Positions 22,326-38,200 of a DNA stretch of 64,000 nucleotides are shown one piece after another. Made by a program: the position numbers and the translations under genes. Each line of letters starts with the position of its first letter. Position 1 is the stretch's first letter. The notes under the pieces are model-generated. The model was not told the DNA's origin and made no database searches. It was given only the letters and a program-made list of their open reading frames with translations. The stretch is from an uncultured Leptospirales bacterium (GTDB taxonomy: Bacteria; Spirochaetota; UBA4802; UBA5550), in contig CAZHNW010000002.1 of assembly GCA_964534225.1 (NCBI GenBank), forward strand, positions 20,581-84,580, in the 5' to 3' direction.

Positions 22326-23687
22326 TTAATTTTTACAGAGGGCGTCATAGAGCGCCGCCAGGGTCTCATCGGCGTGATAGTTCAGGACCCCGAAGTGGAA
22401 GCTGATCTGTGCCGGCCCCTGGTCAATAATTTCGATGTTGATATTTTTATCCTTCAGGGCTGTCGCTGCCGCGGCAATGACCCCTGGCTGGTCTCTCATA
22501 CCGATTCCCACGGGGGAGAGAACGGTAATGTTGTAGTTAAAGGAAATGCTGTCAGGGTTCAGCTGTTCCTGTATGACATCCTTCAGGTCATCTTCATAGC
22601 CAATCAGGTCGTCCTGGTTAAAGATGACGGAGACATCGTCCTTGTCCGTGGGATAGTGATAGGTTTCGATACCGAAATCCTTCATGATTTTAAGCAGGTC
22701 GTTGACAAAGCCGATGGTTTCACCGGCGCCGTCTTTTTCAAGATAGCAGTAGGCGATATTATCGAGGCGGGCGATGCCGACGACGGTTTCCTCGGGGATA
22801 CGTTCGGATACGATCATGGTTCCCGGTGCCGATGGATTGTTGGTATTGCGGATGTTTATCGGGATATGGCGTTTTTTGCAGTTCACCATGGCATCGAAGT
22901 GAAAGACATTGAATCCCTTTGATGACAGGAGCCTGATTTCTTTATAGGTAAGGCGCGGGATAACATGGGCCCCGGGAATGATACGTGGGTCCACCTGGTA
23001 GATGCCGTCGGTGTCGGTCCAGTTCTCATAGAGTGAGGCGTTGACCGCGTAGGCAACCTCTCCGCCCGTCAGGTCTGATCCGCCCCGGGAAAAGACGGCA
23101 ACATCACCTTTTTCCGTGATGCCGTAGTAGCCGGGAATGACCGCGACAAAATCATTGTCGCCAAGATGGGCAAGGTTTTTGTAGGTGACCGGAATGACCC
23201 TGGCGCTGCCGAAATCTTCGGATACGACGATGCCGATATCTTCAGGGAGGAGGAGCTTCGCGTTTATGCCTTCTTTTTTGAAGTAACGGGTGATGATTTT
23301 AGCATTATAATGTTCCCCCCGTGATGCAAAGAAGTCGATCTTTCTGTTGTCGGGAAGTGATTTTTTCAGGTCACTTCCCAGGTCAGAGAGAATGTCTTCC
23401 CCTTCGATACCAAGGTCTTTGATGAGGCGTGTGAACTTGTTTATAACGCTGCGGCTGCTTTCATCGGGGGTAATATTCTTGTTACGGATCCTGAAATGGT
23501 TTCCCCCCGTGGCGATATTGAAGAGATGATCCGTAACCTTTTCGCTGTCGATATCATCTTTGCCTGGAGCGGAGACAATGACATATTTTCTATCGGTGTT
23601 GGCTTTGATAATGTCTGTGACCTTTTCGATCTGTCCCGCGTTGGCCACTGAACTTCCCCCGAATTTACAGACAATGTGTCCTTCCAT
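22326..23687 (-). CDS. lysC: aspartate kinase
   Basis: 453 aa. N-terminal KFGGSSV amino-acid-kinase motif, two C-terminal ACT-like regulatory domains. Confidence 0.9.
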   Translation of the reverse strand: MEGHIVCKFGGSSVANAGQIEKVTDIIKANTDRKYVIVSAPGKDDIDSEKVTDHLFNIATGGNHFRIRNKNITPDESSRSVINKFTRLIKDLGIEGEDILSDLGSDLKKSLPDNRKIDFFASRGEHYNAKIITRYFKKEGINAKLLLPEDIGIVVSEDFGSARVIPVTYKNLAHLGDNDFVAVIPGYYGITEKGDVAVFSRGGSDLTGGEVAYAVNASLYENWTDTDGIYQVDPRIIPGAHVIPRLTYKEIRLLSSKGFNVFHFDAMVNCKKRHIPINIRNTNNPSAPGTMIVSERIPEETVVGIARLDNIAYCYLEKDGAGETIGFVNDLLKIMKDFGIETYHYPTDKDDVSVIFNQDDLIGYEDDLKDVIQEQLNPDSISFNYNITVLSPVGIGMRDQPGVIAAAATALKDKNINIEIIDQGPAQISFHFGVLNYHADETLAALYDALCKN

Positions 23688-23940
23688 TGTAGTTTAAACT
23701 CCCTTTGATGATTATGGTCTGCCCGGCATCTGTTGTGGCACCGGTTTTATACCGTAATGAGTATACCTGACATAAAAGAAGGGAGTGAACATATTGCAAG
23801 AATTTTTTATTATCCCTTCTTACCCTGAAAGCTGTACTTCAGTTTAAAAGACAGGAAATGAAGAAGAGGAAAAATGGCGTTTAATGAAGAAAAAATTGAA
23901 ATATAGGAAAGTCAATTAACATAAACCAGTTTATGATCCA

Positions 23941-24029
23941 TAAAAGTTCTTATCAGTAGCTGGTACATGTCTCAGAATTGTTAATATACTGACAAAATGT
24001 GCGGGATTGGCAAGACTTTTTTAAATTTT
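23941..24029 (+). repeat. 89-nt direct repeat, copy 1 (80% identical to 26011-26099, no gaps)
   Basis: taaaagttcttatcagtagctggtacatgtctcagaattgttaatatactgacaaaatgtgcgggattggcaagacttttttaaatttt. Contains a TGGTAC...TAATAT promoter-like pair and a terminal T-run. Confidence 0.55.
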
Positions 24030-24221
24030 GATGCCGGAGTAATTATTGACCCCGACTCTATCGAGTGTGGTAATCTCGGGACAGGTACCATTGATGAATT
24101 CAAAGTTACCATAGCATTTAAGCAGTTTCAGCTGGTGGATTATATAAACAGTACACCGGGTCTTCTTGACGGTGACACTGAAGCATCCTGCCTGGCGTCT
24201 TCCATATTTTGTTGCTGCTGA
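23997..24221 (+). CDS. doubtful small ORF (74 aa) starting inside repeat copy 1, ends in SSIFCCC
   Basis: ATG lies inside the repeat. The corresponding position in copy 2 has no ATG, no SD and no recognisable family. Probably non-coding. Confidence 0.15.
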   Translation: MCGIGKTFLNFDAGVIIDPDSIECGNLGTGTIDEFKVTIAFKQFQLVDYINSTPGLLDGDTEASCLASSIFCCC

Positions 24222-24358
24222 ATGCAGATATTTTTAAGCAGGGAGATGGGAAGATTTTCATGTAAAGGTATTTGTGTTTAGCAGGGATATTATTGTTTTC
24301 AACTGGCCTTTATCCAGAGCAGAATCCTGAAATAAAAAAACAGTATCTCTTTTATTCT

Positions 24359-25945
24359 TTAAACTGCCTGATAAAACTCCACCCGGTTCCTTCCGTTATT
24401 TTTTGCACGGTAGAGTGCCTGGTCCGCTTCGGAAAGCAATCTGCTTAATATCTCCTCAACGGACTCTTCTGTTTCTATGCTGGAGAAATCAATATATGAT
24501 ATGCCAAAACTTGCCGTAATCTGCAACACCTTCTCTTCAAAATCAATCTGCATGCCGGCAATCCGTTCTTTCAGCCTGTCTGCAATTTTTTCTGTACCAT
24601 TGCCACAGACATCGGGAAGAATAATGGCAAACTCCTCGCCGCCGTATCTGCCTGCGTCATCATTCTCTCTCAGGTCTGCTTTAAATACCGTTGCTATTTC
24701 AATCAACACGGCATCCCCGGCCTGATGGCCGTATGTGTCATTGACTTTTTTAAAATAATCAAGATCAAGAATTATAATGGAAAGTTTGCGTTTATGACGC
24801 CTGGCCCTGATTATTTCACTCTTGCATATATCAATAAAGTGACGCCTGTTTGACAGGCCGGTGAGATCATCAGTGGTGGCCAGATTATAGAGAGACTGTT
24901 GCAGGAGCTTCTGGGTGGTTATGTCGTTCAGCGTTATAATCGATCCGATGCGTTGTCCACGGGAAGAAGCAATATCGGTTATTGAAGAATTGAAATAGAT
25001 ATTCTTCTTGTTTTGTGTTAACTTCATTTCAATCGTTTTCCTGTTCTCCGAGTTTAAATGTGCAATTAACGGCGTCTGGTCTTTCAGTACATCGGCAAAC
25101 ACCTTTCCCCTTGATCCGGCAAGTTGGGGAAAAAGTTTCATTGACGAGGCGTTGAAATCAGCAATTCGTCGTTCCCGATCGACAACAATGACAGGGTCCA
25201 GCATATTTTCAAAAACACGACCGCGTGCTATGGGAATAATATCAAACATCTTAAACCTGAACAAGGCCAGGGCAAAAAACGGTCCTGTCAGTGCCAGGAA
25301 GAATGGATTGATGTCAACGCCCCCTGGCCCCAGTTCTGCCAGGTAGGCAATACTGCCCACCCAGGGAATCAGGGAAGCGACAAACATGGTAATTGCCTGT
25401 AAGCGCAGGGGACCTTTTGATTTAAACATCATCAGGAAAAAGAGAATGTTTCCTCCGATGATCAGAATGTCCCTATAGATAAAATCGATATAATACCATT
25501 TGCCCTTTGTAATGCCCGCCATGGGGAATGGACCCGAAGTGTCAAGAGTCAATGACGCATAATGAAGGTGATGGTGTTCATTGGTATAGAGCATGACAAT
25601 GGTCGTCAGGGGTACTACAAATAAAAGAGCGACAACCCTGGAGTTGATCTTTTCGGTATAGCCGCTGTATTGCAGGGCCATGATAATCCAGAAAACCGAC
25701 ATAGGGGCAATGCCGAGATATTCTATCTTCAGGGCAAGGTAGATTCCCTCAATAGTGGTATTGTACAACTCAAAGGCATAGCCAAAGGTGTATATAGACA
25801 GGGTGATCATTAATAGCATGTAAGCAATTGCACCCCTGGTATCTTTTCTTCGGGAGGCATAAAAGGAGAGGAATAAAGTTATCCCACCGGAAACCAGAAG
25901 GAATATGAGCAGTAACGTTTTGATAGACATATAATTCCTGAACAC
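24359..25945 (-). CDS. membrane-bound diguanylate cyclase: N-terminal polytopic (about 7 TM) sensor domain, PAS-like linker, GGDEF domain
   Basis: 528 aa. Multiple N-terminal TM helices, GGDEF active site RYGGEEFAIIL, with the upstream RxxD-type region. Confidence 0.85.
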   Translation of the reverse strand: MFRNYMSIKTLLLIFLLVSGGITLFLSFYASRRKDTRGAIAYMLLMITLSIYTFGYAFELYNTTIEGIYLALKIEYLGIAPMSVFWIIMALQYSGYTEKINSRVVALLFVVPLTTIVMLYTNEHHHLHYASLTLDTSGPFPMAGITKGKWYYIDFIYRDILIIGGNILFFLMMFKSKGPLRLQAITMFVASLIPWVGSIAYLAELGPGGVDINPFFLALTGPFFALALFRFKMFDIIPIARGRVFENMLDPVIVVDRERRIADFNASSMKLFPQLAGSRGKVFADVLKDQTPLIAHLNSENRKTIEMKLTQNKKNIYFNSSITDIASSRGQRIGSIITLNDITTQKLLQQSLYNLATTDDLTGLSNRRHFIDICKSEIIRARRHKRKLSIIILDLDYFKKVNDTYGHQAGDAVLIEIATVFKADLRENDDAGRYGGEEFAIILPDVCGNGTEKIADRLKERIAGMQIDFEEKVLQITASFGISYIDFSSIETEESVEEILSRLLSEADQALYRAKNNGRNRVEFYQAV

Positions 25946-26010
25946 AAATACGGGGTGTTATCGAAATAACATCTGGAAAATTTTCTCAAAAAAAATTAGT
26001 TCACACCCGA

Positions 26011-26099
26011 TAAAAATTCTTATTTGCAGCTTGTACTTGTCTCTGTAATGTTAATATATTGACAAAAAAATCGGGATTAGCAAGGTTTTTTTAAATTCT
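26011..26099 (+). repeat. 89-nt direct repeat, copy 2
   Basis: taaaaattcttatttgcagcttgtacttgtctctgtaatgttaatatattgacaaaaaaatcgggattagcaaggtttttttaaattct. About 200 nt upstream of the AraC-family gene. Confidence 0.55.
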
Positions 26100-26304
26100 C
26101 GAACGAAAAATCAGCCAAAAATTTTTGCGCGAACAAACCTCTTTGCATGTTCCATGCCCCGAAGGGGCTTTTCTTGAAATCAAACCTATGAGGGGAAAGA
26201 AATAACAGGGGAGTTATAAAAATGACTTGCCAGTGTTTTATGATTTGAAGTTACTGAAAAAAGTAAAACGCAGATGAAATTTTTGATAATATAGACACTG
26301 TTAT

Positions 26305-27393
26305 ATGAATCTATCCATCGATATTTATTTTTCAATTTTTGTTATTTCAGGGTGTTTCTTCTCCTTTTTCGTCTCCCTGGCGATATTTATCAAGCCCCGG
26401 GATGACAGGAGAAAGTTTCTCGAAGGGGCGGTTTTTCTGCTGGCCTCTCTCTGGATGTTCTGCGCCTATCACCGCCTGTTTCTCGGGAAACGGGAAGACA
26501 ACCTCTTTATCGTGGGTACCATTCTCTTTGCCTTTTTTGTGCCGGTACTCTATCTCTATATCCGTATGCTGCAGGATACCCGGTTTTCGCTAATCAAGAA
26601 GCATTTTATTCTCTTTGTTATACCTCTCCTGCTGCTGCCGGTTTTTATGGTGACGTTCCGGTTTCCCCCCGGTTTTTATGAATTATTTAATGTCAGGCCC
26701 CTGGAGGCAAGTCTGCGATATTCCATTCTTATGGGGGCAACCTTTGCCGAAAACCTTTACCTCTTTGTTATGCTCTTTGTTCTGAATATGCAGTTTGTCA
26801 AAATATTCCGTACCGGCAGGGACAACCGGTACCATTACCTGCGCTATTTTTTTGTGCTTACCTTTTTCCTTAACCTGATCATCGGTTTCTATTTTGTGAA
26901 TTATTTTCTCGAACTGAAAATGATTAAATATTCTTATATAACGGGAACAATACTGGTATATTATTTTTTTGTAATATATTTTATTTTTTTCGCCGAGATA
27001 TCCACACGCTACGAAGAGGAAAAAAAACAGCCCGATGGAGACTGTTTGAAGGGGCTTGATCCGGCTCTCCTTTTGTCCCGCCTTGAAAGCCTGATGCATG
27101 AGGAGAAACTCTACCGCTCTGAAGACCTGACACAGAGGGCCCTGGCAGAGAAGTTGCGTATTTCTCCCCAGCAGCTTTCGGCCCTTTTTGGTGTTTACAT
27201 TAAAAATAATTATTATTCATACCTTAGTGCATGGCGTATCGATGAGGCAAAAGAACTGCTTCTCGACGCCCCGGAGATGAAGATCCTTGAAATTGCCCTG
27301 CACGTGGGGTTCAACTCACAATCATCCTTTTACAGCGCCTTTAAAGGGGTGACCGGTATTTCTCCCCGGGAGTATAGAAAAAGTAAGGTATAA
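26305..27393 (+). CDS. AraC/XylS-family transcriptional regulator with N-terminal multi-TM membrane domain
   Basis: 362 aa. About 7 hydrophobic helices in the first 230 aa. C-terminal double HTH (LSALFGVYIKNNYYSYLSAWRIDEAKELL...SSFYSAFKGVTGISPREYRK). Confidence 0.8.
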   Translation: MNLSIDIYFSIFVISGCFFSFFVSLAIFIKPRDDRRKFLEGAVFLLASLWMFCAYHRLFLGKREDNLFIVGTILFAFFVPVLYLYIRMLQDTRFSLIKKHFILFVIPLLLLPVFMVTFRFPPGFYELFNVRPLEASLRYSILMGATFAENLYLFVMLFVLNMQFVKIFRTGRDNRYHYLRYFFVLTFFLNLIIGFYFVNYFLELKMIKYSYITGTILVYYFFVIYFIFFAEISTRYEEEKKQPDGDCLKGLDPALLLSRLESLMHEEKLYRSEDLTQRALAEKLRISPQQLSALFGVYIKNNYYSYLSAWRIDEAKELLLDAPEMKILEIALHVGFNSQSSFYSAFKGVTGISPREYRKSKV

Positions 27394-27403
27394 AATAAAA
27401 AAA

Positions 27404-27434
27404 GACGCATCTGGTTCCAGATGGAAGTTTTTTT
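27404..27434 (+). terminator. rho-independent terminator after the AraC-family gene
   Basis: Hairpin GCATCTGG-ttcc-AGATGG followed by TTTTTTT. Confidence 0.5.
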
Positions 27435-27528
27435 GTCCTTAATTAAGTATCTATTAATCATAACTATGCTTTTTCAGATTATAAATTTTTGAACCTGTTC
27501 CGGTCTGAGTGGAAAAGCAGCGAGGAAC

Positions 27529-30021
27529 GTGATGATGAAGTTAAAAGCAGCCATCCTGAATATGTGTATTATTTCCCTCTTTGCCGCCTGCGGCGGCATA
27601 AGTCCCCTTGAAATGGCCGGTAATTTTATTGCCAACAGGCCCCCGGAGATCACGGATTTCAGGACTACAACTGATATTAGCCGGGGCCTTATCCCCAATA
27701 TGACCATGCATCTTGAGGTTGAGGCGGATGACGCTGATGGCCATGAACTGAACTATGAGTTTACCGCCGATAACAGTATCGGTTCCTTTGCCTTTAAAGA
27801 AGTAACAGACACGGGGTGTTCCATAGATTATTACCTGCCTGATGCCATTCCCCTGGACCTTTCATTCAGTGTCACCGTTACCGTCACCGACCCGAAGGGG
27901 GCTGAGTCGGTACAGAAGCTGGATCTCGGCACGGGGAAGACGGGGCCGGTACTTTCTACACGGACCCTCAGTGAGACCGGTTTTTTTGTTGTACGTGAAG
28001 GGCGCACCTATGTAAAACCGGATTACCAGGCGGAGATAGAATTTACCAGTGACAGCGACGGCTTTTACCAGGTGCGTATTTACAGTGACTTTGAGGCGGA
28101 ACCATCCTTTGATGAAAGCAAACCGGTTCATCTCTACCGTGTTGCCAGCGGCCCTAAAACCATTACCATAGCCGCCAGCGGTACCTCCGCTGACGCGATC
28201 ATTACCCCCAACACGCCCCAGAAGCTCTGCATCTTTATGCAGGACACCCTGGGACAGACCAGCCTCAAGGTCTATTATTACTATGCAGACACGGCACCCC
28301 CGGCGCCCCTCATGGACTATAAACATGGCATTGCCATTACGAAAGGTCAGACCCTGGTGATACCCTTTGATGAAGAACTTCAAATCTCAGGGGCAGCGGC
28401 CTTTGATTCCACTGATCCTGTCAATACTATTCTTGATGACGGCATAAACGCCACGGCAACGGTAAGCGGCTCAACAGTAACCATTACTCCTCAAACGGGC
28501 AGCACCTGGTCAATGGCCACTGAAAGATATTCGCAGCAATACGAACTCTATCAGACGGGCCTTGACAGGATTGCCCGCATCAACGTAAAGGATGATTTTG
28601 ACAACGAGGGATATGTGGATATCCGGTTTCATGTTTTTGAAGAGGTTCTGTATGTCAATGCCGGTAATACCGCTGCCAGCCCTGACGGTTCAGCGGACAA
28701 TCCCTACAGGTATATTCAGGATGCCGTGGATGTTGTCCGTACCAGTGGTAATATTGCGGGGATATGTGTCTCACAGGGAACCCATACACCTCAATACACC
28801 GGAACCAGTGTTGCCCTGATAAGTGGTTATGAACAGGTCAATCTCCTGGGGGGCTATGCGTATCAGGATAATGATACCACAAAGGTCAACCCCCTGCGAA
28901 GAGACCCGCAGAAGTACCCTTCGGTTATCAGTTATACCGCCCCTGATCCTGATGGCGCCGGTTCTAATCCCGGGGGGGCCATTGATGAGCCGGCAAGCGC
29001 CATCTTGATGGGGACGGATAGTAATTATAATTATCCGGTTCTCATTGACGGTTTCATCTTTGAGACCTCCGGGCATGCAAAGGGCTCCACCGTTGTCGCG
29101 GATATTTTCTGTGGCAACCATGCTGCCATGATCCAGGGCAATGTCTTTTATACTGCCGCCAATACTGCCTACAGCTTCAATATTGCTGTTGTCTATAACA
29201 ATGTGATTGAAGGGATCAGTAATACCAGTTACTGTCTCGCATATGAACAGCGCATCTACAATAATTATTTTTTTACCGGTGGGCAGAACAACCATGCCAG
29301 GGCGATACAGATCGAGTGCTGGAGTGAAGATGACATTACCCCTGTTCATGCTACTGATCTTCAGTATAAGGCGGATATCCGTCACAACACCTTTGCCCTG
29401 AGCAGCGGTTCCGGGGGAAAAACCAAGGGGGTTTATATCAGCACCTATCACTGTACCGATCCCAATGCTCCATCAAATCAAGTCTGTTATGAAAACACAA
29501 CAGCGGATTTTCAGATTGATGCAACGGTAATGAATAATCTTATTTTTGTTACCGCCTTTGACCCGGCAAACAGGCCCATGGCCCTTTTCAGTCATCATGC
29601 AGAAACCGCGCCGGGGAATTATTGCGTCTATAACGCCTTTCATAATAATTTTAATGACCTTTCGACAGTCTCTTCAGAATCAGAGATGTATTATTATGTA
29701 CTCAGTTCGCATGTCTCCACTCAAAATTTATATAATCAGGGTTTTGGCTATTATGATACATTGCCATTACCCTCATGGAGCGGTTTTGGCAGTGAAAATA
29801 TAGCCGTTGATCCTCTTTTTGTGTCAGCAGATGGTCTCTGGCTGCTTCAGCAGATAAGCCCGGTTTCAGTACGGATCGAGGGTATTGACGATTCACCCTC
29901 AACAGACGATGGTAATTACCAGGCCTTTGGCCAGATGATTCCCCTGGATTTTTTCGGCAATGCCCGCACCGGCAACGGTACTGACGGAGTATCCCTGGGG
30001 GCCCATGAGATGGACCAGTAG
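27529..30021 (+). CDS. large lipoprotein (830 aa), probable right-handed beta-helix/adhesin-like surface protein
   Basis: Lipoprotein signal MMMKLKAAILNMCIISLFAACGG. T/S/N/G-rich repetitive beta-strand segments (NNVIEGISNTSYC, NNYFFTGGQNNHARAIQIE). G7 tract 28972-28978 inside the CDS. Domain assignment is tentative. Confidence 0.45.
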   Translation: MMMKLKAAILNMCIISLFAACGGISPLEMAGNFIANRPPEITDFRTTTDISRGLIPNMTMHLEVEADDADGHELNYEFTADNSIGSFAFKEVTDTGCSIDYYLPDAIPLDLSFSVTVTVTDPKGAESVQKLDLGTGKTGPVLSTRTLSETGFFVVREGRTYVKPDYQAEIEFTSDSDGFYQVRIYSDFEAEPSFDESKPVHLYRVASGPKTITIAASGTSADAIITPNTPQKLCIFMQDTLGQTSLKVYYYYADTAPPAPLMDYKHGIAITKGQTLVIPFDEELQISGAAAFDSTDPVNTILDDGINATATVSGSTVTITPQTGSTWSMATERYSQQYELYQTGLDRIARINVKDDFDNEGYVDIRFHVFEEVLYVNAGNTAASPDGSADNPYRYIQDAVDVVRTSGNIAGICVSQGTHTPQYTGTSVALISGYEQVNLLGGYAYQDNDTTKVNPLRRDPQKYPSVISYTAPDPDGAGSNPGGAIDEPASAILMGTDSNYNYPVLIDGFIFETSGHAKGSTVVADIFCGNHAAMIQGNVFYTAANTAYSFNIAVVYNNVIEGISNTSYCLAYEQRIYNNYFFTGGQNNHARAIQIECWSEDDITPVHATDLQYKADIRHNTFALSSGSGGKTKGVYISTYHCTDPNAPSNQVCYENTTADFQIDATVMNNLIFVTAFDPANRPMALFSHHAETAPGNYCVYNAFHNNFNDLSTVSSESEMYYYVLSSHVSTQNLYNQGFGYYDTLPLPSWSGFGSENIAVDPLFVSADGLWLLQQISPVSVRIEGIDDSPSTDDGNYQAFGQMIPLDFFGNARTGNGTDGVSLGAHEMDQ

Positions 30022-30084
30022 GCAGGCCTTTAAAATTATAAAAAAAGAAAATAACTGTATTTATACAACGGGAGTAAAAGAACG

Positions 30085-31029
30085 ATGACCGGTAAAAATA
30101 ATGGCAAGATCGGCACAGGACTGGTGGCTTTCATCGCCCTGGCCTCTGTGGCGGGGGCACTTTTGATGACCAGAACGGGATTTGATAAAAAAAGCGCCTC
30201 TATCAACGCGCGGGTGACATTTCTTGTGGGTTCCGCTCAGGTGACACGGCAGAAAAAGGAGACAGTCCTGAGGGCGGGTGATGCCCTGCAGCAGGGCGAT
30301 GTAATACGCACGGGTAAAAAGTCGCGGCTGGTTGTACAGGTTGACCGCGTGGGGGTGCTGACACTTTTTGCCGACGCGGTTTTTTATCTTAAAGAGGTTC
30401 AGGGGGGGAAGTTAAAGGCCACCAGGGTGGGCCTTGACAGGGGGCGCCTTTTTTCAAAAATTTTGAAACAGAAAAAGGGCCCCTACACGGTGCAGACACC
30501 CACGTCTACCGCGGCGGTGCGGGGTACATCTTTTCTCACCACTACTGACACCAGGGGATCATCACACCGTCTCCTGGAGGGGAAGGTACTTGTGACTTCC
30601 CTCACGAAAAAGAAAATGACCGGGGAGGAAAAAATTCTCGAACCGGGATCGGCCGCCCTGGTTACGAAAAATAGAAAGGTTGCCATCAGGAAAATGGACA
30701 GGCTGGAGAAACTTGAAACAGAAAAGCTGGGCCTTTATCCCTACCGGGAACATATCGATGATAAAAAAGAAGCAGAAAGGACTGAAAATAACGTAGAGAG
30801 CGAAGAAAACAGGCTGCAGAAAATGATCAACCAGGAGCTGGATAAACTTCCCCCCCTTGAAAAACTGCGCCGCCAGGGCAGGCCCCTTACCATGCTCTCC
30901 CTGAAAGATGGTTCACGTATTACCGGGCATGTGGTAAGTTCTGATGCCGGGTTTGTCCGCTTTGATACGGGGCGGAGGGTCATTTCCATTGAGGTGGGTG
31001 ATATCAGGCGCCGGGTTCCGGTGAAATAG
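30085..31029 (+). CDS. FecR-domain protein with N-terminal membrane anchor and C-terminal coiled-coil
   Basis: TM/signal anchor, then FecR-like beta-sandwich region (GDVIRTGKKSRLVVQV...TPTSTAAVRGTSF). Charged coiled-coil tail. G7 tract 30402-30408 in the CDS. Confidence 0.65.
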   Translation: MTGKNNGKIGTGLVAFIALASVAGALLMTRTGFDKKSASINARVTFLVGSAQVTRQKKETVLRAGDALQQGDVIRTGKKSRLVVQVDRVGVLTLFADAVFYLKEVQGGKLKATRVGLDRGRLFSKILKQKKGPYTVQTPTSTAAVRGTSFLTTTDTRGSSHRLLEGKVLVTSLTKKKMTGEEKILEPGSAALVTKNRKVAIRKMDRLEKLETEKLGLYPYREHIDDKKEAERTENNVESEENRLQKMINQELDKLPPLEKLRRQGRPLTMLSLKDGSRITGHVVSSDAGFVRFDTGRRVISIEVGDIRRRVPVK

Positions 31030-31043
31030 AAGGGATTGATAAA

Positions 31044-31886
31044 ATGAAAAAAAGAATGACGGGCATTGTTATCGCGGGGCTGCTTTTCTGCGCCGCGGCA
31101 CTCTCGGCGGAGATGGTCTACCTTAAAGACGGGCAGGTGATATCGGGGAAGATCACAGCAGAGAACCGGGTTTTTATTACAGTCAAGAATAAGTATCAGA
31201 CCTTTCAGTTGAAACGTTCGGATATAAAGCGCATCATGTACGGTGACCGTAAAATGGAGACCATCTATATCGAAAAGACAGATGGTAAACTTTTGAAGGG
31301 ATTCATGGTCGACCAGGATGCACTGAAGGTTTATTACAAAAAATCGCGGGACGCCCGGGAGACGATTATCCTGAAGAAAAACATAACGCGCATGTCGTCG
31401 CATCCCTTTGTGCCCCTGGACGTGGGGCTCATGCTGCGCAGTGGTATCTTCTACCCCGTTAATTCGGGCAACTCCTCCCTGGGGGTGGCGCCGGTGGTCC
31501 TTGCCTCGGCGGGGCTTAATCTTCCTTTTAAGAATTTTCGCCTTTTCATGGAGTCGGGGTATTATCAGAGTACAAGCTCTGTTCACACCGACCAGTTCAT
31601 GTTTTTTATTCCCGTGACGGTAAATCTTACCTACGATTTTGCCTTTGGCCATTTTCACCTGCTGCCAAAGGCGGGGACAGGTATCGCCATTGTCAGGTTT
31701 GATGATGGTGAAGGGAGTGATGCTTCAGGAACGACCTTTAACCTGATTATCGGCGCGGGAGGAATGTGGGAAATTTTCAAACGCCGCCTTTACGCGGGCC
31801 TCTGGTTCGACTACTGCCTCATTGCTGATTCAAGCGCCGCCTGGCATGGTATTATGGCAACGGCCAGTATCAGCTACCGGTTTTGA
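31044..31886 (+). CDS. hypothetical exported protein with C-terminal beta-barrel-like region (outer-membrane protein candidate)
   Basis: Signal peptide MKKRMTGIVIAGLLFCAAALSA. C-terminal alternating strands ending ...ASISYRF (terminal Phe). Confidence 0.45.
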   Translation: MKKRMTGIVIAGLLFCAAALSAEMVYLKDGQVISGKITAENRVFITVKNKYQTFQLKRSDIKRIMYGDRKMETIYIEKTDGKLLKGFMVDQDALKVYYKKSRDARETIILKKNITRMSSHPFVPLDVGLMLRSGIFYPVNSGNSSLGVAPVVLASAGLNLPFKNFRLFMESGYYQSTSSVHTDQFMFFIPVTVNLTYDFAFGHFHLLPKAGTGIAIVRFDDGEGSDASGTTFNLIIGAGGMWEIFKRRLYAGLWFDYCLIADSSAAWHGIMATASISYRF

Positions 31887-32106
31887 GCCCCCGTATTTTT
31901 TTCTAAAAATTTTTCTGGTTTTTCATTATGCCAAAATTTATGATGATAGTTTTGGAACCCGGGTTATTTGCTCCAGGATAAAATTCATCTTGAGATTTCT
32001 GTTCACTACAGGTATTATAAATCAATTATCTTCCGGGGCCCGGAGGACCAATGGCTGTTTTCCGGGTATGAGAAAAGAATAATTTTTTACAGTAAGAGGA
32101 ATTACC

Positions 32107-33438
32107 ATGCCAAGGCTGAAAGATATCAGGGGTCACACCCGTCTTTTCCTCGAGGATTACTCGAAAAAAATTTTAAGAAGTGAAATGATTCGCGCGGGAA
32201 TCGTGGCATCTATTTCCTTTATTGCCATGACATGGTTTTTTGTTACTCTCTTCATTTTTCCTGATTACTTCCCCTCGGCGGCATTGAAGGAGTTCAGGGG
32301 GATTTCGATTTTTGCCTGGCTCGCCCTTGTTTTTGTTCTTCTGGGTGTCTATGAAATTATTTTTATGGGCGTTTTAAGGATGTTTATGAAAAGGGAGAGG
32401 AAGTTTCCCCTGGCTCCCCGGTTCTTTAATGCCTTTATCGAAATATCTACCCTTTCCCTGGTCATCTTTTTTTCAAGCCGTGCCGGCCTCGGCATTGAAT
32501 CGATTTTTACGCCGACAATTTTTCTCTACTTCATTTTTATTGCCCTTAGCTCCCTGCGTCTTATTGTCAGCCTTTCATTTTTTACCGGTTTTGTCGCTGC
32601 TGCAGAATATATCATTATGGCCTTCACTTTCATGGAAAAGTATGCCGCAACAGACCAGACCGGCATGGCATCTGTGGCCTACTCGCCCGGCTTTCATCTT
32701 TCACGGGGCCTGATTCTCTTTGCCGCGGGTCTCGTCACCGGTTTTGTTTCCTACCAGATCAAGAGACGACTCGTCAGTTCCCTGGAAAGCATTGAGGAGA
32801 GAAAAAGGGTACTTACCATTTTTGGCGAACATGTCTCACCCCAGGTGGTAACGCGTCTTGTTGAAGCGGGGGGGGAGATCAGCAATGAGAGCATCTATGT
32901 CTGCATCATGTTTTTTGATATTCGAAATTTCAGCTCCTTTTGCGAAAATCACAGTGCTGAAGAGGTAACAGGTCTACTCAACTATCTCATCGAATTTATA
33001 GTGGAGATAGTTGATGAACATCACGGCATGGTGAACAAGTTTCTCGGTGACGGGTTTCTTGCCCTTTTTGGCGCCCCCTTTCCATCGGGGGATGACTGTG
33101 CCAATGCGGTTATGGCGGCCCTTGCTATTGTTGATCGTCTCGAGGAGGAGATCAGAAAGGGCTTTATTGAACCGGTACGTGTCGGTATCGGTATACATGC
33201 GGGAGATGTTATCTCAGGTAATGTCGGTTCTACTCGCCGTAAGGAATATACTATTATTGGCGATGTGGTCAATATCGCCTCCCGCCTGGAGCAGTTGAAT
33301 AAAAAGTTTTCCTCGACGCTGCTGGTCTCCGGCGAGGTGTGGAAACAGCGGGGAGATCTTTCGGTAAAAGGTGAAAATCTTGGATCTGTCGCGGTAAAAG
33401 GGTATTCTGCACCGGTGCCGGTTTACCGTCTGCGGTAG
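32107..33438 (+). CDS. membrane-anchored class III adenylate/guanylate cyclase
   Basis: 443 aa. Six-ish N-terminal TM helices. Cyclase-homology domain motifs IMFFDIRNFSSF and KFLGDGFLALFGAP. Confidence 0.85.
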   Translation: MPRLKDIRGHTRLFLEDYSKKILRSEMIRAGIVASISFIAMTWFFVTLFIFPDYFPSAALKEFRGISIFAWLALVFVLLGVYEIIFMGVLRMFMKRERKFPLAPRFFNAFIEISTLSLVIFFSSRAGLGIESIFTPTIFLYFIFIALSSLRLIVSLSFFTGFVAAAEYIIMAFTFMEKYAATDQTGMASVAYSPGFHLSRGLILFAAGLVTGFVSYQIKRRLVSSLESIEERKRVLTIFGEHVSPQVVTRLVEAGGEISNESIYVCIMFFDIRNFSSFCENHSAEEVTGLLNYLIEFIVEIVDEHHGMVNKFLGDGFLALFGAPFPSGDDCANAVMAALAIVDRLEEEIRKGFIEPVRVGIGIHAGDVISGNVGSTRRKEYTIIGDVVNIASRLEQLNKKFSSTLLVSGEVWKQRGDLSVKGENLGSVAVKGYSAPVPVYRLR

Positions 33439-33640
33439 TTAAACTTCCCCCCCCCTCATTATTTTTTTGCATGAGGTCTGCGCGACTGGTCAAATTCCGA
33501 CCGGACTGTCTTTAATTCTTGACAAGGAATTTAGTTTTTGTTTTATTGTTGATTGACATGTCAGTCATTAAGTTCCGGAAAGATGATTCTAACCGGGTGT
33601 CTGATTTCTTCATGTCTTTGGGAGAAGGAGGAAAAGAAAT

Positions 33641-36202
33641 ATGAAAAAAGCTCTGGTACAACTGTTTGTTTTTGTTTTCATACTTTTTGGTTTTTTCGGG
33701 TGTGATGATCCCTATGAGTCCATATTCGATAACAGGCCTGATTATCCCACCGGGAGAGGATGGTCCTATATGGGACCTGAATCGCAGAATCCCTTTAAAT
33801 TCGCCAATAAAACATACAGGGTAAAATTTTATAAAAATGACGGGTATATTAAGACCTCGTCATTAGGATACTGGACAGGCAGCAGTGACGAGGCTGTGGT
33901 TTTCTACCTGAAACCGGCGGCACTGGGTCAGTATATTCTCATGGACAGGGATCATAAATATCTTTCTGTTTTTGGTTCTCTTGTTATCAGGTCCGGGAAT
34001 CTTACCAACAATGTGATATGGGAAATTGCCAGTTCCGGGGATGATAATATATTTGTTCTTCGTTCACTGGAAAAGCAGAAATATCTTGCTGTTGGCAGCA
34101 GTGGAGCCCTGAAGCTGGTTGATTCCCTTACCACGCGATGGAACACAAAAAGGGAAGAGTGCGGTATTGTTTTTTCTGAGGTTGAGGCTGATTTCTCATT
34201 TCCCGAGGCGGAGATAAATGTGGCCTTTACTGATGATGCTGGCAACAGTGTCTCTCCCGGAAATGCCCTGCAGCGTCCTGCCCCGGAAGAGGAAATAATC
34301 GGTTATGCAGACGTTCATACCCACCTGAACCACTACCTCGGATCAGGACAGGCGAACTTTGTGGGTGCCAATTTTTCCCCCCTGGGAATACAGAAAGCCC
34401 TTGATGACTGCGGTTCTATTCATGGCATTAATGGTACCATGGATATTTTTGGCATGGCACTGGATGGCCATACCACCCATGATACAGGAGGATATCCTGA
34501 TTTTCCCTTCTGGCCCACATCATATTCAGAAACCCACCAGCAGGCCTATTACAGGTGGCTCGAGCGGTCATGGCTGGCAGGGCAGCGTGTCCTGGTGCAG
34601 CAGTTTGTGAATAATGAGATACTGGGAGAAATCCGGCGCCGACTTCCCCTGGCAGATCCTGATGCCCCCACCAATGACATGGTTGTCTGTGAGATTCAGA
34701 TGAAGAATATGTATGCCATGCAGGAATATATCGATGCCCAGAGCGGCGGTCCCGGCAGGGGCTGGTTCAGGATATGCACCTCATCAAAAGAGGCCCGCCA
34801 GGTTATCAGCGATGGTAAAATGGCTGTTTTTCTTGCTATTGAGGTAGATACGGTTTTCGGTATCGAGGATGATATCAAGGGAATGGCCGAAGCCGGCCTT
34901 ATTCCTGAAAGTGACTGGGCAAAGGCGAAGGAAAATATTCTCAGTCAGCTTGAAATGTTTTATGATCTGGGGGTTCGCAGTATTTTTCCTGTTCATGCCT
35001 TTAATAATGGTTTTGCCGGGGCGCAGCTCTACCAGGCCCCCATGTTTAACCTGGTTAACTGGGTTGAGCGGGGTGAGTTCTACAGTGTAGAGTTAAGCCC
35101 CAATCCCCGGGTGACCTACCGCGAAGGGGGGATAGAGGTTCAGGATCAAAAGGTCATGGAAGTCCTTGAATCACTCGGCTTTATTGATTCTCTTGTTCCC
35201 CTTGTGCCGGCAGGTTCTGATGATGGTACCTGGGGGCACTCCAATAAGGTTGGCCTATCAGCCACGGGTGAATGGCTCATAGATGAACTGGTCAAGCGGG
35301 GGATTGTGGTGGAAGTTGACCATATGAGTGACCGGTCTCTGAACCGGACCCTTGAACTTCTCGAGGAAAAGAGGTACCCCGGTGTTATTGCCAGTCATAC
35401 CCGTATTATAGACATGTATCCTGACGGCAATACCGATGCATGGGAACAGATGGATATCCCCCGCATGATCCGTGTCATGCGTCTCGGGGGGATTATTTCC
35501 CCCATGCTCTGGTCTACCATGGCAGAAGAACAGAAGTGTGCCGCAGACCACCTGAAGCTGATGATCGAAGGGGGTGGGTATTTTGGTGATGCGAACCATA
35601 AAGATTATGATTACCGCTATACCCGTTTCAACGAATTCGATCCCGGTATTGCCAATTATGACGGCGGCAACCTGATCATAAGGCCTTCATGGTATAACTG
35701 CAATGATAATCCTGACGATGACCTGATCCTTGGTATACCCTTTGCAACGGATGTCAACGGGGCATGCAGGCTTCCGGCCTTTAAGCCCTATGGTGCGCGT
35801 GAAAACGATAACATGGACCCGGGAATCTACGGAACCTATAACGAAGTCAAACTTCCCCGGGACGAAACGGGCAGGTATACCTTTGGTACCCTCTACCCGG
35901 GAGTCTACCAGCCGGGGGTCACTGCCCTGTTCAGCCAGCAGAAAACGGGTAACAGGGTTTTCGATATCGAGGCATCACCTGGAGTGGCACATTATGGCCT
36001 GATTCCTGATCTTATTAAAAAGCTTCAGAGCCGGCCAAAGCAGGTCAACCAGGACGCCCTTTTTCATTCAGCAGAGGCGTACCTGAGGATGCTTGAACGA
36101 ACAGAACGGTACAAGGAAAATCCTGACGAGATAAAGAATGGCTGGAATGCATGGCTTGAAAGCATGAATGACCAGCTGCCCCTTGAAAGGCATATGCAGT
36201 AG
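33641..36202 (+). CDS. large lipoprotein with ricin-like/beta-trefoil N-terminal region and a membrane-dipeptidase (peptidase M19)-like TIM-barrel domain
   Basis: Lipobox FFGC. Segments align by eye to M19 dipeptidase blocks: ADVHTHLNHY, LAIEVDTVFG...FYDLGVRSIFPVHAFNNGFAG, GIVVEVDHMSDRSL...PGVIASHTRI. Catalytic assignment unverified. Confidence 0.5.
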   Translation: MKKALVQLFVFVFILFGFFGCDDPYESIFDNRPDYPTGRGWSYMGPESQNPFKFANKTYRVKFYKNDGYIKTSSLGYWTGSSDEAVVFYLKPAALGQYILMDRDHKYLSVFGSLVIRSGNLTNNVIWEIASSGDDNIFVLRSLEKQKYLAVGSSGALKLVDSLTTRWNTKREECGIVFSEVEADFSFPEAEINVAFTDDAGNSVSPGNALQRPAPEEEIIGYADVHTHLNHYLGSGQANFVGANFSPLGIQKALDDCGSIHGINGTMDIFGMALDGHTTHDTGGYPDFPFWPTSYSETHQQAYYRWLERSWLAGQRVLVQQFVNNEILGEIRRRLPLADPDAPTNDMVVCEIQMKNMYAMQEYIDAQSGGPGRGWFRICTSSKEARQVISDGKMAVFLAIEVDTVFGIEDDIKGMAEAGLIPESDWAKAKENILSQLEMFYDLGVRSIFPVHAFNNGFAGAQLYQAPMFNLVNWVERGEFYSVELSPNPRVTYREGGIEVQDQKVMEVLESLGFIDSLVPLVPAGSDDGTWGHSNKVGLSATGEWLIDELVKRGIVVEVDHMSDRSLNRTLELLEEKRYPGVIASHTRIIDMYPDGNTDAWEQMDIPRMIRVMRLGGIISPMLWSTMAEEQKCAADHLKLMIEGGGYFGDANHKDYDYRYTRFNEFDPGIANYDGGNLIIRPSWYNCNDNPDDDLILGIPFATDVNGACRLPAFKPYGARENDNMDPGIYGTYNEVKLPRDETGRYTFGTLYPGVYQPGVTALFSQQKTGNRVFDIEASPGVAHYGLIPDLIKKLQSRPKQVNQDALFHSAEAYLRMLERTERYKENPDEIKNGWNAWLESMNDQLPLERHMQ

Positions 36203-36219
36203 TCTCTTATTATTAAGAA

Positions 36220-36259
36220 TAAAAAAGCCGTCCGGTGCTGAACCGGGCGGCTTTTTTTT
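36220..36259. terminator. bidirectional rho-independent terminator between convergent genes
   Basis: AAAAAA-AGCCGTCCGGT-gctga-ACCGGGCGGCT-TTTTTTTT. The T-run overlaps the stop codon of the pyrophosphatase gene. Confidence 0.6.
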
Positions 36260-37913
36260 AAGAAGACCGGCTGATAACCTCCGTCAGGTAGGGAATAAGC
36301 TGCTTTTTCCGGGAAAGGATTCCCTTCATGCTGTAGATGTCTTTCTGGATTTTCGGGTAGGTGAGTGATGCCTTTACTTCCTCATCGCCGGCAATAAAAA
36401 AGATACTGTCCAGTTCGGTAATGTCGGTAACGAGAAGGGCAGAGAAAAGGAAATTTTCCGATTTCTGAAGTTTGTTGAGCTCTTCAAGTATTTTGTCCTG
36501 CCTTTCCATTAACTCTGTCAATGTGGTAACTTCCACCTGGCTGACCGAATAGGAGGTGTCTCCCTGGGGATAACGTTTCATGTCCATTGCAAGGATTTCG
36601 TTGACGGGCTTTTTACCGATCTGTGAAGCGGCATGCATGATATCATTGCCAAATTCTTCGATGGAGAGATCGGTTATTTCCGCAAGGTATTGTGCCACAT
36701 TCCTGTCTGTATCCGTGGTGGTGGCGGAGCGGAGTATAAGCGTATCAGAAAGGATCCCCGCAAGGAGAAGGGAGGCAATATTTTTCTGCATGGGAATCTT
36801 TTGTTCCAGGAACAGGGTGGCAATAATCGTGGATGTTGATCCCACGGGCTTGTTGATAAAGGTAATGGGGTAGGTGGTGGGAGGATTTCCCAGCCGGTGG
36901 TGGTCGATGATCTCGAGAATTCGATAGTTTTTAATGCCCTCTGCCGCCTGGGAGAGCTCGTTATGATCGACGAGAATGACATCAATGTTCGGCTCTCCCA
37001 TCAGGTCTCCCTGGCTGAGAATGCCGATGACCCGTTTTTCCGCGTCTACTACGGGAAGGGAGCGTGAAATACTGGCGCTTATCTTTTCGTGTATGTTCTT
37101 GATATACTGGTCTTCTCCAAGGGGCTCAAGGGCATTGTCTGCCATGAATTTGACAGGTGTGGCATAGAATGAAAGGAGAGAGCTTGTTGCCGTATCAAAG
37201 GGGGAGATGAGCAGGGAGGTCTTTTTTTTCTCCGCCAGTTCCCTGACGTCCTTCCGGATTGTTTTCCCCCCTGTAACGACAAGGCAGCGAATACCCCTTT
37301 CGATGGCGGCCCGGTGAACCTCGGCCCTGTTGCCTGCGATGATAATAATATTTTCACCGGGGATGGAATCGATAAATTCACTGATGGTCTCAAGGTCTGA
37401 TGCCGCCACCAGGAGGCGCGCCTTGAATACCTCGTCGCCATGAAAGGTAATGATCTCCTGGGCGTTGAGAGTCTGGCTCAGCATGGTGATGGTCGTGGGA
37501 ATAATGTTTTGCCGGTGAGGATCGATTTTTTTCAGCATGTTTTGCGCAAAGGCATTGTAGTGAAGTACCGAGGTAAGTCTTTTACTGTCATCAACAACAG
37601 GAAGCATTTTATGGTTGTCACGGTTGAGGATTTCAAGGGCTTCCCAGAGTGGTGTTGATTCATGAACTGTCAGGGGGGAGATGCTCATATAGTTTCTTAC
37701 ACGCGGTACAAGGTCACTGATGAGACGTGGTTTTTCTACATCGAAGCGCCGCAGTATGTAGTCAGTCTGGGGATTTATTTTTCCCACGCGAACCGGGTAG
37801 CATTCAGAAGCACCCTGGAGTTTTTTCAAATCCGCATAGGCAATGGCAGAAACCACGGAATCGGTATCGGGGTTGCGGTGACCGAGGATATAGGTTTGTT
37901 TCTTCTGTTTCAT
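36258..37913 (-). CDS. CBS-domain-containing manganese-dependent inorganic pyrophosphatase (family II, DHH/DHHA2)
   Basis: 551 aa. DHH motif I GHRNPDTDS, motif DHNE (ILVDHNELSQ), inserted CBS pair, C-terminal DHHA2. Confidence 0.85.
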   Translation of the reverse strand: MKQKKQTYILGHRNPDTDSVVSAIAYADLKKLQGASECYPVRVGKINPQTDYILRRFDVEKPRLISDLVPRVRNYMSISPLTVHESTPLWEALEILNRDNHKMLPVVDDSKRLTSVLHYNAFAQNMLKKIDPHRQNIIPTTITMLSQTLNAQEIITFHGDEVFKARLLVAASDLETISEFIDSIPGENIIIIAGNRAEVHRAAIERGIRCLVVTGGKTIRKDVRELAEKKKTSLLISPFDTATSSLLSFYATPVKFMADNALEPLGEDQYIKNIHEKISASISRSLPVVDAEKRVIGILSQGDLMGEPNIDVILVDHNELSQAAEGIKNYRILEIIDHHRLGNPPTTYPITFINKPVGSTSTIIATLFLEQKIPMQKNIASLLLAGILSDTLILRSATTTDTDRNVAQYLAEITDLSIEEFGNDIMHAASQIGKKPVNEILAMDMKRYPQGDTSYSVSQVEVTTLTELMERQDKILEELNKLQKSENFLFSALLVTDITELDSIFFIAGDEEVKASLTYPKIQKDIYSMKGILSRKKQLIPYLTEVISRSS

Positions 37914-37933
37914 GTGAGCTGGTTCTCCCTGTC

Positions 37934-38200
37934 TCAGAGAAGGGACCCCTGGAGGTCATCTTCGTCGGCAATTTCTCCCGTCTCTTCTTTGACCTTGATT
38001 TTCTTTTTTTCTACGGAGTCATCATCGCCCGTCTGGAGGATCTCTATCTTCTTTTCAGCCTCTTCCAGTTTTCCGTGACAGAGGCGGGCATACTGCATGC
38101 CCTTTTCGAATTCAGCGATTGAATCTTCAAGGGAGAGTTCCCCCGTTTCCAGTTTGCGTGCAATCTCCTCGAGAGAGGAGATTGCATCTTCGAATTTCAT
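37934..38200 (-). CDS. xseB: exodeoxyribonuclease VII small subunit with acidic C-terminal extension
   Basis: Core FEDAISSLEEIARKLETGELSLEDSIAEFEKGMQYARLCHGKLEEAEKKIEIL. ATG at 38200 preferred over the GTG at 38269, which would overlap xseA by 56 nt. Confidence 0.75.
   Translation of the reverse strand: MKFEDAISSLEEIARKLETGELSLEDSIAEFEKGMQYARLCHGKLEEAEKKIEILQTGDDDSVEKKKIKVKEETGEIADEDDLQGSLL

Follow-up and report, generated by a model that had tools for sequence, protein, structure and literature searches.

Two imperfect copies of a noncoding sequence lie in direct orientation on either side of a single 1.93-kb block in the genome of an uncultured spirochaete. The copies are homologous and were probably left by a rearrangement in which a piece of a divergent promoter region became duplicated around this block, judging from the sequence of a 64-kb window (the whole stretch of DNA that was analysed) and from related genomes. 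The features of the locus are as follows:

22326..23687, minus strand: aspartate kinase of the lysC type, a conserved core gene (Pfam AA_kinase and ACT), downstream of copy 1 on the minus strand
23894..23939, plus strand: diverged left extension of repeat copy 1 (54% identical to 25964-26009)
23940..24029, plus strand: core of repeat copy 1, 90 nt (72/90 identical to copy 2 in register)
23979..23994, no strand: central near-palindrome of copy 1, TGTTAATATACTGACA, one mismatch to TGTTA-N6-TAACA
24018..24221, plus strand: 3' end of a truncated DUF4382-family lipoprotein gene, from protein and DNA homology
24359..25930, minus strand: membrane diguanylate cyclase, HisKA_7TM and GGDEF, 523 aa (Pfam PF16927, 8.8e-58; PF00990, 1.2e-43; also a 523-aa gene call on the source contig)
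25956..25971, no strand: TGTTAT-CGAA-ATAACA, a perfect palindrome upstream of the cyclase gene, 26 nt from its ATG
25964..26009, plus strand: diverged left extension of repeat copy 2, beginning 33 nt upstream of the cyclase ATG
26010..26099, plus strand: core of repeat copy 2, 90 nt, in the intergenic DNA separating the divergently oriented cyclase and AraC-family genes
26049..26064, no strand: central near-palindrome of copy 2, TGTTAATATATTGACA, 14/16 self-complementary
26156..26175, plus strand: terminator-like hairpin GCCCCGAAGGGGC followed by TTTTCTT, between copy 2 and the AraC-family gene
26305..27393, plus strand: AraC-family regulator whose N-terminal half is hydrophobic with multiple helices (Pfam HTH_18 and HTH_AraC, residues 280-359)

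The repeat and the truncated gene at its edge

An initial sequence-only reading of this DNA had described an 89-nt direct repeat, which our alignment confirms: 23941-24029 and 26011-26099 match at 71 of 89 positions, with no indels and both on the plus strand. The core of the repeat spans 23940-24029 and 26010-26099, with 72 of 90 positions identical in a gap-free, in-register alignment at an offset of 2070 nt (blastn E 6.8e-15). None of the other 90-nt windows of the sequence approaches this value (n=63,731; mean 23.4 matches, sd 4.4). To the left of the core, 23894-23939 and 25964-26009 remain in register at lower identity (25/46, or 54%), a level attained in just 9 of 63,863 windows, and the duplicated unit is therefore estimated at about 136 nt; a repeat search returned a family of 134 nt at 72% identity. 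The left edge is thus graded and the right one sharp: identity falls to 5/46 directly beyond the latter. The pair is the sole noncoding repeat of such size in the window. A protein-coding repeat was rejected, since the mismatches lack 3-nt periodicity and there are in-frame stop codons upstream.

On its right side, copy 1 ends where a gene is broken. The 74-aa ORF at this position (23997-24221) starts at an ATG inside copy 1 and had been called doubtful; it is a 3' fragment of a DUF4382 lipoprotein gene rather than a small gene in its own right, and we have re-annotated it as a pseudogene fragment. The protein encoded by the remnant is 54% identical in amino-acid sequence to residues 257-310 of a 328-aa protein carrying PF14321 DUF4382 (P0246), and its DNA (24027-24148) is 69% identical to positions 6778-6899 of L017. 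The part of the gene encoding the first 256 residues is absent from the 64-kb window. Homology to DUF4382 starts at 24018 for protein and 24027 for DNA, at most 12 nt from the right edge of copy 1. Because the repeat ends where the gene is truncated, the edge of the repeat is likely to be a rearrangement breakpoint. In a relative, the DUF4382 homologue sits within an IS66/RHS/integrase island.

A probable rearrangement upstream of lysC

The locus lies between lysC and xseAB, about 12 kb from dnaA/oriC, and its gene content differs among relatives. Relatives with 77-87% identical LysC retain the order lysC-125aa-lspA-ileS, whereas the genes upstream of lysC vary (MCP, xseAB and others); xseAB abuts lysC in two relatives, and here xseA is about 14.5 kb from lysC. 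The aspartate kinase itself matches NCBIfam PRK09034 (8.7e-129) at 430.1 bits, just below the curated cut-off of 434. A comparison with related genomes had been proposed as a check, and neither the repeat nor the cyclase was found at the corresponding position. A proximal block upstream of lysC (approximately 23768-23814) is kept in three relatives, while copy 1 is not. Since only this block is common to relatives, a conserved lysC regulatory element or lysine riboswitch was rejected as an identity for the repeat, and since lysC has this conserved block of its own, copy 1 is not needed for lysC.

The closest homologue of the cyclase outside the species has 52% identity and an unrelated context, and the contexts of the cyclase homologues in general (≤52% identity) are likewise unrelated and lack the repeat. 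The AraC-family gene is the first of a plus-strand cluster downstream of copy 2, and its product has only two homologue clusters in a database of 5.8 billion proteins. A paralogous AraC-817aa-FecR cluster on L015 has just a 17-mer in common with the repeat and otherwise lacks it. The absence of the repeat from this cluster and from the cyclase homologues led us to reject a conserved cyclase or AraC regulatory region. A sensor domain shared by the AraC-family and cyclase proteins was also rejected, as BLASTP found no similarity between the two.

Additional copies of the repeat, for which a wider search had been suggested, were found neither in the window nor in public collections. Searches with blastn and nhmmer gave two copies only in the 64-kb window, and approximately 1 Mb of related loci yielded no others. 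Pattern scans gave no matches in GTDB genomes, and two in JGI metagenomes (both chance matches within coding sequence); a plasmid search gave none, and the searches of viral contigs returned one chance match and none, with nothing related. A weak nhmmer match in a relative (L005 6131-6182, E about 0.005-0.03) is AT-rich intergenic sequence in which the palindrome is not kept. A claimed third occurrence at 56718-56750 did not hold up: it consists of an exact 15-mer (TTGACA plus an A-run) with dissimilar flanks and an nhmmer E of 7.8, and thus is not a repeat copy. It reads as an independent TTGACA-17-TAGGAT promoter of the gene at 56854.

A 98%-identical sister strain (L014) has the same arrangement, with one substitution in copy 1 and an identical copy 2. 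The two available strains diverge by 1.4-1.8%, and the most variable patch between them is 26128-26140. Divergence between the two copies of the repeat is 20%, which is large relative to that between strains and points either to an old event or to copies that differed from the start.

Of the explanations put forward for the repeat, we favour the one that sees in it a scar, left when duplication or recombination captured the cyclase. The homology is in register, its edges are abrupt, a disrupted gene lies at one edge, the arrangement and the cyclase are absent from relatives, and no other copies occur in the collections searched. The bracketed block (24030-25963) is composed of the DUF4382 3' tail and the 7TM-GGDEF cyclase gene, the latter with 33 nt of its 5' flank. 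The position of the cyclase gene between the copies, on the minus strand, is as first described; its start, previously placed at GTG 25945, is most likely the ATG at 25930, preceded by an AGGAA ribosome-binding site. From this ATG, only 33 nt of unique upstream sequence precede the duplicated unit. With almost no upstream sequence belonging to the cyclase itself, copy 2 probably supplies its promoter.

The following account of how and in what order the rearrangement happened, and of any promoter or operator role, is our inference. A single rearrangement would have taken place in the spot between lysC and xseAB that varies among relatives, near the replication origin. It would have duplicated an intergenic stretch of about 136 bp, 90 bp of which have kept 80% identity. 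This could have occurred in one of two ways. First, a fragment that was foreign or translocated, and whose ends were arbitrary, may have been inserted, with duplication of the target sequence; to our knowledge, no insertion mechanism commonly duplicates 90-136 bp of its target. Second, a break within the DUF4382 gene may have been repaired by a short patch copied from 2 kb away. No genome with an empty site was found. The duplicated piece would be part of a divergent promoter region in which the central TGTTAATATAyTGACA gives overlapping weak promoter signals on both strands. The cyclase would be transcribed from the minus-strand signals of copy 2 (A-tract - TTGCyA - N16 - TGtCArTAT). On the plus strand, copy 2 continues to face the AraC cluster, and copy 1, still upstream of lysC, now leads into a dead gene fragment.

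The repeat is an ordinary feature and reveals no new RNA, mobile element or mechanism. It is a small, clean case of rearrangement-driven regulatory rewiring, of limited importance, and would document how a diguanylate cyclase gene came to lie behind a duplicated piece of a resident promoter in a recombination-prone spot near the origin of an uncultured spirochaete.

Alternative operator, RNA and mobile-element explanations

On the plus strand, both copies display TGtTAATAT (extended -10-like) with a poor -35 at 15 nt, and on the minus strand an A-tract, TTGCCA/TTGCTA, 16 nt and TGtCAGTAT/CAATAT; these elements were identified by eye, and all of them are kept in both copies. A sigma-70 promoter has -35 and -10 hexamers spaced by 16-18 nt, or a -10 extended by TGn. 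A sigma-70 consensus scan listed no site inside either copy, with hexamers below threshold on both strands. The promoter pair suggested earlier, TTGTAC-N15-TAATAT, is poor (first hexamer 3/6, 15-nt spacer, sub-threshold), although its TGnTAATAT part does occur in both copies. The centre of each copy is the near-palindrome TGTTAATATAyTGACA. Its half-sites recur in the perfect palindrome at 25956-25971, 93 bp centre-to-centre from the copy 2 palindrome. This is the only zero-mismatch TGTTA-N6-TAACA in the window; with up to one mismatch there are 7 sites versus 1.7 expected, three of them within this 2.1 kb. The loci of relatives show no such enrichment. Palindrome-like matches at 12106 and 12229 fall inside the AT-rich oriC region and are compositional, and an identity as DnaA boxes or an oriC element was rejected.

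These signals raise a second possibility, which we regard as tentative and rather unlikely: that selection has kept the copies similar as working modules bound by one factor, which would control lysC, the cyclase and the AraC cluster together. The factor might be a Rex- or CRP/FNR-like dimer acting on TGTTA-N6-TrACA, or the adjacent membrane AraC regulator. Selection would fit the 80% identity of the 90-nt core as against 54% in the adjoining 46 nt of the same duplication, and the presence of three TGTTA-N6-TrACA sites in 2.1 kb, one of them perfect and independent of the repeat. TTGTTAAnnnnTTAACAA is the consensus of Clostridia-type Rex boxes, and the repeat site matches it at 12 of 14 specified positions, though this may not be the motif used in this spirochaete. 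Rex sites of Thermoanaerobacterium show the same form (PMC5886521). On the other hand, the identical runs within the core are no longer than a random scatter of 18 mismatches would give (a rough estimate), and Pfam detects no Rex or CRP domain or gene among the 38 window ORFs that were scanned. The palindrome is not enriched in relatives, and none of their lysC regions contains copy 1, which here is found 250 nt upstream of lysC and farther out than the proximal block. The comparison of two strains involves too little divergence to reveal constraint. Selection and rearrangement overlap on the origin of the copies; they differ in that selection claims a present-day function for both.

A more specific form of this proposal seems improbable to us. 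The 90-nt core would be a lineage-specific operator/promoter module, with the dyad TGTTA-N6-TrACA and its perfect partner at 25956-25971, through which a redox- or nucleotide-sensing dimer or the neighbouring membrane-anchored AraC regulator could couple c-di-GMP synthesis, aspartate kinase and the AraC/FecR/cyclase cluster. If this were true, the duplication would be the route by which the incoming cyclase was wired into this regulon.

It had also been proposed that the repeat is a promoter with a conserved 5' leader or small RNA. Each copy would then comprise a promoter and the 5' part of a plus-strand transcript starting near TGACAAAA, that of copy 2 ending at the 26156-26175 hairpin. We consider this very unlikely. 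The extended -10-like TGtTAATAT is indeed kept in both copies, the plus-strand terminator-like hairpin 57 nt past copy 2 has no plus-strand gene upstream of it, and a long AU-rich hairpin followed by TTTT occurs downstream of copy 1 at about 24196-24260. Yet similarity ends at 24029/26099, and the putative transcripts would therefore have just ~35 nt in common. Nor is there a stable or conserved fold: relative to shuffled sequences, the repeat folds have z-scores of -1.14, 0.01, -0.30 and 0.77, with neither strand better, and alifold consensus energies from only two sequences, hence of low power, are -5.65 (plus strand) and -1.55 (minus strand) kcal/mol. Compensatory pairs between copies number 1-2, all in A/U runs. 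The suggested structure and covariance check thus revealed no shared fold beyond the level of shuffles, and lends the leader or small RNA little support. Nothing in the whole window reached an Rfam gathering score, and within 23600-26400 there were only chance-level matches (E 0.55-4.5) to eukaryotic, plastid, viral or metagenome-derived families, far under their gathering scores. A known RNA family or structured RNA was rejected on these grounds, and a tRNA/tmRNA search found none. In addition, the putative copy 2 transcript would include 26128-26140, the patch that varies most between strains, and the T-run of its terminator is altered too (first T to A in L014). What follows copy 1 is a dead fragment of a protein-coding gene.

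Finally, the 90-nt unit might be a dispersed repeat such as a MITE, a REP-like element or an integron attC, with the cyclase as a cassette between two sites. The direct orientation around a single gene, the sharp edges, the variable region and the island around the relative's DUF4382 homologue all speak for this, but it is very unlikely, and the least probable of the explanations considered here. An attC site has R''(RYYYAAC)...R'(GTTRRRY) 50-140 nt apart and an imperfect single-strand hairpin. A regex scan of 23800-26300 found no RYYYAAC...GTTRRRY core-site pair on either strand, and single-strand DNA folds reach only -2.5 to -4.8 kcal/mol (z >= 0). As for a MITE or IS, neither copy has terminal inverted repeats, and the flanks (ATCC|...|GATG and CCCG|...|CGAA) show no target-site duplication. 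Extra copies are lacking in the 64 kb, the ~1 Mb of related loci and the genome, metagenome, plasmid and viral collections, and 330 nt plus the gene fragment separate the cyclase stop codon from copy 1.

Comparison with known systems

Like integron attC/cassette arrays, the locus has direct repeats of about 60-140 nt around a single promoter-poor gene; unlike them, it has no core sites, hairpin potential, integrase or array, and neither the distance between gene and repeat nor the gene fragment suits a cassette. CRP/FNR operators have the form TGTGA-N6-TCACA, and AT-rich TGT...ACA dyads are common. With Rex and CRP/FNR operators, the repeat centre shares the 5-6-5 dyad geometry and the resemblance to the Clostridia-type Rex form, here in a Spirochaetota MAG, with a second, perfect dyad nine helical turns away. 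It differs from them in that the window has no regulator gene and the motif is not enriched in relatives.

A further comparison is with promoter capture or duplication, where a duplicated promoter region of the resident genome drives a transferred gene. The hexamers predicted here are weak by the standards of E. coli sigma-70, but the cyclase has a short 5' flank of its own, A-tract, -35-like and TG-extended -10-like signals are aimed at it, and the duplicated unit also lies upstream of the resident lysC. Segmental duplications or rearrangement junctions with flanking direct repeats arise by illegitimate recombination or templated repair in variable genomic regions. As such a junction, the repeat is unusual in its size, 90-136 bp being larger than transposase target duplications and much smaller than typical homologous-recombination substrates, in the 20% divergence of its copies, and in having no adjacent recombinase or IS element in the window. 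It is like such junctions in its collinear, gap-free homology with sharp edges, in the truncated gene at one edge, in the absence of the enclosed block from relatives, and in having two local copies only.

The duplicated unit and its edges

The window covers the replication-origin region of a genome from an uncultured member of the Spirochaetota, with the gene order gyrA, gyrB, recF, dnaN, dnaA, an AT-rich oriC-like spacer, ileS, lspA, a 126-aa gene and the aspartate kinase. The features around the repeat are, in order:

22326-23687, minus strand: aspartate kinase (lysC)
23940-24029, plus strand: copy 1 of the repeat, followed by a 74-aa ORF (plus strand)
24359-25930, minus strand: HisKA_7TM-GGDEF cyclase, start ATG at 25930, with an AGGAA ribosome-binding site
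26010-26099, plus strand: copy 2 of the repeat
26305-27393, plus strand: membrane AraC-family regulator, between copy 2 and an 830-aa gene
3' of the AraC gene: the 830-aa protein (no Pfam match), FecR, a 280-aa ORF and a nucleotidyl cyclase

Earlier in the window, a very AT-rich spacer of 630 nt comes after dnaA (10289-11635, minus strand) and contains DnaA-box-like motifs, such as tgtggggataacc near 11873. Together with dnaN, recF, gyrB and gyrA upstream, 10289-12266 looks like the chromosomal replication origin.

The direct repeat is present where the sequence-only reading placed it, with 71 of 89 bases shared between 23941-24029 and 26011-26099 at an offset of 2070 nt and no indels. Counted from 23940 and 26010, 72/90 positions are identical without gaps (blastn E = 6.8e-15). 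Background identity for 90-nt windows across the 64-kb sequence has a mean of 23.4 (sd 4.4), and none approaches 72/90; the pair is the sole sizeable non-coding repeat of the window. Elsewhere, a 282-nt direct repeat (79% identity, 51704-51985 and 53211-53492) spans the 5' ends of adjacent minus-strand genes, 50953-51981 (no Pfam match) and 52004-53488 (ankyrin repeats), and probably reflects paralogous N-termini.

On the right, the repeat ends abruptly, with identity of 5/46 immediately beyond it. To the left, in-register similarity carries on for 46 nt more (23894-23939 and 25964-26009; 25/46, attained by only 9 of 63,863 windows), and the duplicated unit is thus about 136 nt long. Better preservation of the 90-nt core than of this extension hints that some constraint acts on it. 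Mismatches within the core appear unclustered by a rough estimate. They lack codon periodicity, and in-frame stop codons lie upstream; a protein-coding repeat was rejected on these grounds.

The right edge of copy 1 also marks a broken gene. When 1.84 billion representatives were searched in full with HMMER, one real relative of the 74-aa ORF emerged: residues 8-61 of the ORF match residues 257-310 of P0246, a 328-aa DUF4382 lipoprotein of the nearest sequenced relative, at 54% identity. DNA-level homology runs from 24027 to 24148. P0246's first 256 residues have no counterpart anywhere in the window, so the ORF is what remains of the 3' end of a larger, truncated gene. The break, 24018-24027, falls where copy 1 ends on the right (24029). 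Copy 1 contains the start codon of the ORF by accident, and the corresponding position of copy 2 has no ATG. In the relative, the intact DUF4382 gene is located in an IS66/RHS/PIN/integrase island.

A variable slot upstream of lysC

Among relatives of LysC, the closest come from Spirochaetota or Leptospirales MAGs. Four genomes (LysC 87, 85, 81 and 77% identical) retain lysC-125aa-lspA-ileS and differ upstream of lysC, where they carry an MCP gene, two other plus-strand ORFs (locus L020) or xseAB directly. While xseAB adjoins lysC in two relatives (L008, L010) and other genes do so in others, it lies about 14.5 kb away here (23688-38200), beyond the DUF4382 remnant, cyclase, AraC, 830-aa protein, FecR, 280-aa ORF, nucleotidyl cyclase, an 853-aa protein and a DHH-CBS protein. 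Thus, the cyclase and the AraC cluster, along with the genes next to them, occupy a variable slot close to the origin that is rich in signalling genes.

The repeat is absent from these four loci and from 80 lysC loci of GTDB genomes. Common to the four lysC upstream regions, all of Spirochaetota, is only a proximal block at ~23768-23814 (…AAAAATTCTTGCAAtATG…TATGTCAG…), which probably serves as the actual promoter or operator of lysC; a search upstream of the aspartate kinase detected no lysine riboswitch. L014, a sister strain of about 98% nucleotide identity that comes from a separate sequencing run, shares the layout seen here, with copy 2 identical and one substitution in copy 1, inside which its contig ends. 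Most of the 830-aa gene (27581-29946) and 430 nt at 31078-31512 do not align to L014 by blastn, reflecting either strain-level differences or assembly artefacts.

Outside the species, the best cyclase homologue is 52% identical, and the homologues examined sit in unrelated neighbourhoods without the repeat. For the AraC-family regulator, whose N-terminal ~230 residues are hydrophobic and apparently multi-helical, a 5.8-billion-protein database yielded just two clusters of homologues, 96% and 59% identical; its architecture is therefore rare. A paralogous AraC-817aa-FecR cluster from the same sample (L015) lacks the repeat. Upstream of its AraC gene, the 17-mer TAAAAAAGTCTTGCCAA (5914-5930) is the reverse complement of 24007-24023 in copy 1, in opposite orientation relative to AraC and with dissimilar flanks, and may be shared by chance.

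Pattern scans of GTDB genomes, JGI metagenomes, plasmids and viral contigs found only chance matches within coding sequence. A weak nhmmer match to the 3' half of the repeat (E 0.005-0.03) falls in AT-rich DNA between divergent genes of the closest sequenced relative (L005 6131-6182, equivalent to L019 2131-2182), where the dyad is not kept. The weaker third copy proposed at 56718 proved to be an exact 15-mer only (TTGACA plus an A-run) whose flanks are unrelated; its nhmmer E is 7.8, and it is not counted as a copy. The site resembles a sigma-70-type promoter (56719-56747, TTGACA-17 nt-TAGGAT, upstream of a 161-aa ORF at 56854), which explains the supposed occurrence.

Origin and content of the repeat

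That the repeat is a recombination scar, as had been suggested, is supported by the right edge falling on the DUF4382 truncation, by relatives without the block between the copies, and by only two copies, both local, turning up in the sequences searched. Any account would have to explain these jointly with the in-register homology, the single abrupt edge, and a cyclase whose private upstream sequence is just 33 nt long. The simplest is one rearrangement in a recombination-prone slot, which would have left a piece of promoter region duplicated on either side of an arbitrary-ended fragment. This fragment ends within DUF4382 on one side and, on the other, a little upstream of the ribosome-binding site of the cyclase. 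The picture would fit an insertion that duplicated its target equally as well as the repair of a break by a short patch copied from 2 kb away. Given the 20% divergence between copies, either the event is much older than the strain split (1.4-1.8%) or the copies were never identical.

The proposal that the unit carries a promoter is plausible but unproven. Its centre is a near-palindrome, TGTTAATATAyTGACA (23979-23994 and 26049-26064), which on the plus strand reads as an extended -10-like TGtTAATAT with a poor -35; no signal on either strand of either copy passes a consensus promoter scan. The minus strand has an invariant A-tract, then TTGCCA/TTGCTA, 16 nt and TGtCAGTAT/CAATAT, and the cyclase most likely uses these signals of copy 2 as a putative promoter. 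To the right of copy 2 lies a plus-strand terminator-like hairpin (26156-26175, GCCCCGAAGGGGC-TTTT), which with the preceding stretch is the most variable intergenic part between the two strains. Within 26128-26175 the strains differ at ~7 positions and by an indel in a 14-nt patch just before the hairpin, and the T-run differs too.

A small RNA or leader, also suggested earlier, is not supported. Both copies on both strands fold no better than shuffled sequence (z-scores -1.14, 0.01, -0.30 and 0.77), as do longer putative transcripts; the consensus fold (-5.65 kcal/mol) has one compensatory pair, within an A/U run, and Rfam gives no match. An integron attC was rejected (core sites absent; single-strand DNA folds of -2.5 to -4.8 kcal/mol), as was a mobile element (no terminal inverted repeats or target-site duplication at the copies).

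Comparison with known operators

A perfect dyad, TGTTAT-CGAA-ATAACA (25956-25971), has the half-sites of the repeat centre; 26 nt separate it from the cyclase ATG, upstream of which it lies, and 93 bp from the dyad of copy 2. Allowing no more than one mismatch, the window contains 7 sites, versus 1.7 expected, and three are at this locus. We found no such enrichment in relatives, and saw no Rex/CRP-type regulator among the window ORFs scanned with Pfam. The Rex box of Clostridia has the form TTGTTAAnnnnTTAACAA, to which the repeat dyad is similar, as it is to CRP-type 5-6-5 sites; from this sequence likeness, a Rex/CRP-type operator would be a lead only. Thermoanaerobacterium Rex sites have the same form (PMC5886521). 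What is new about the repeat is its place; in kind it is ordinary.
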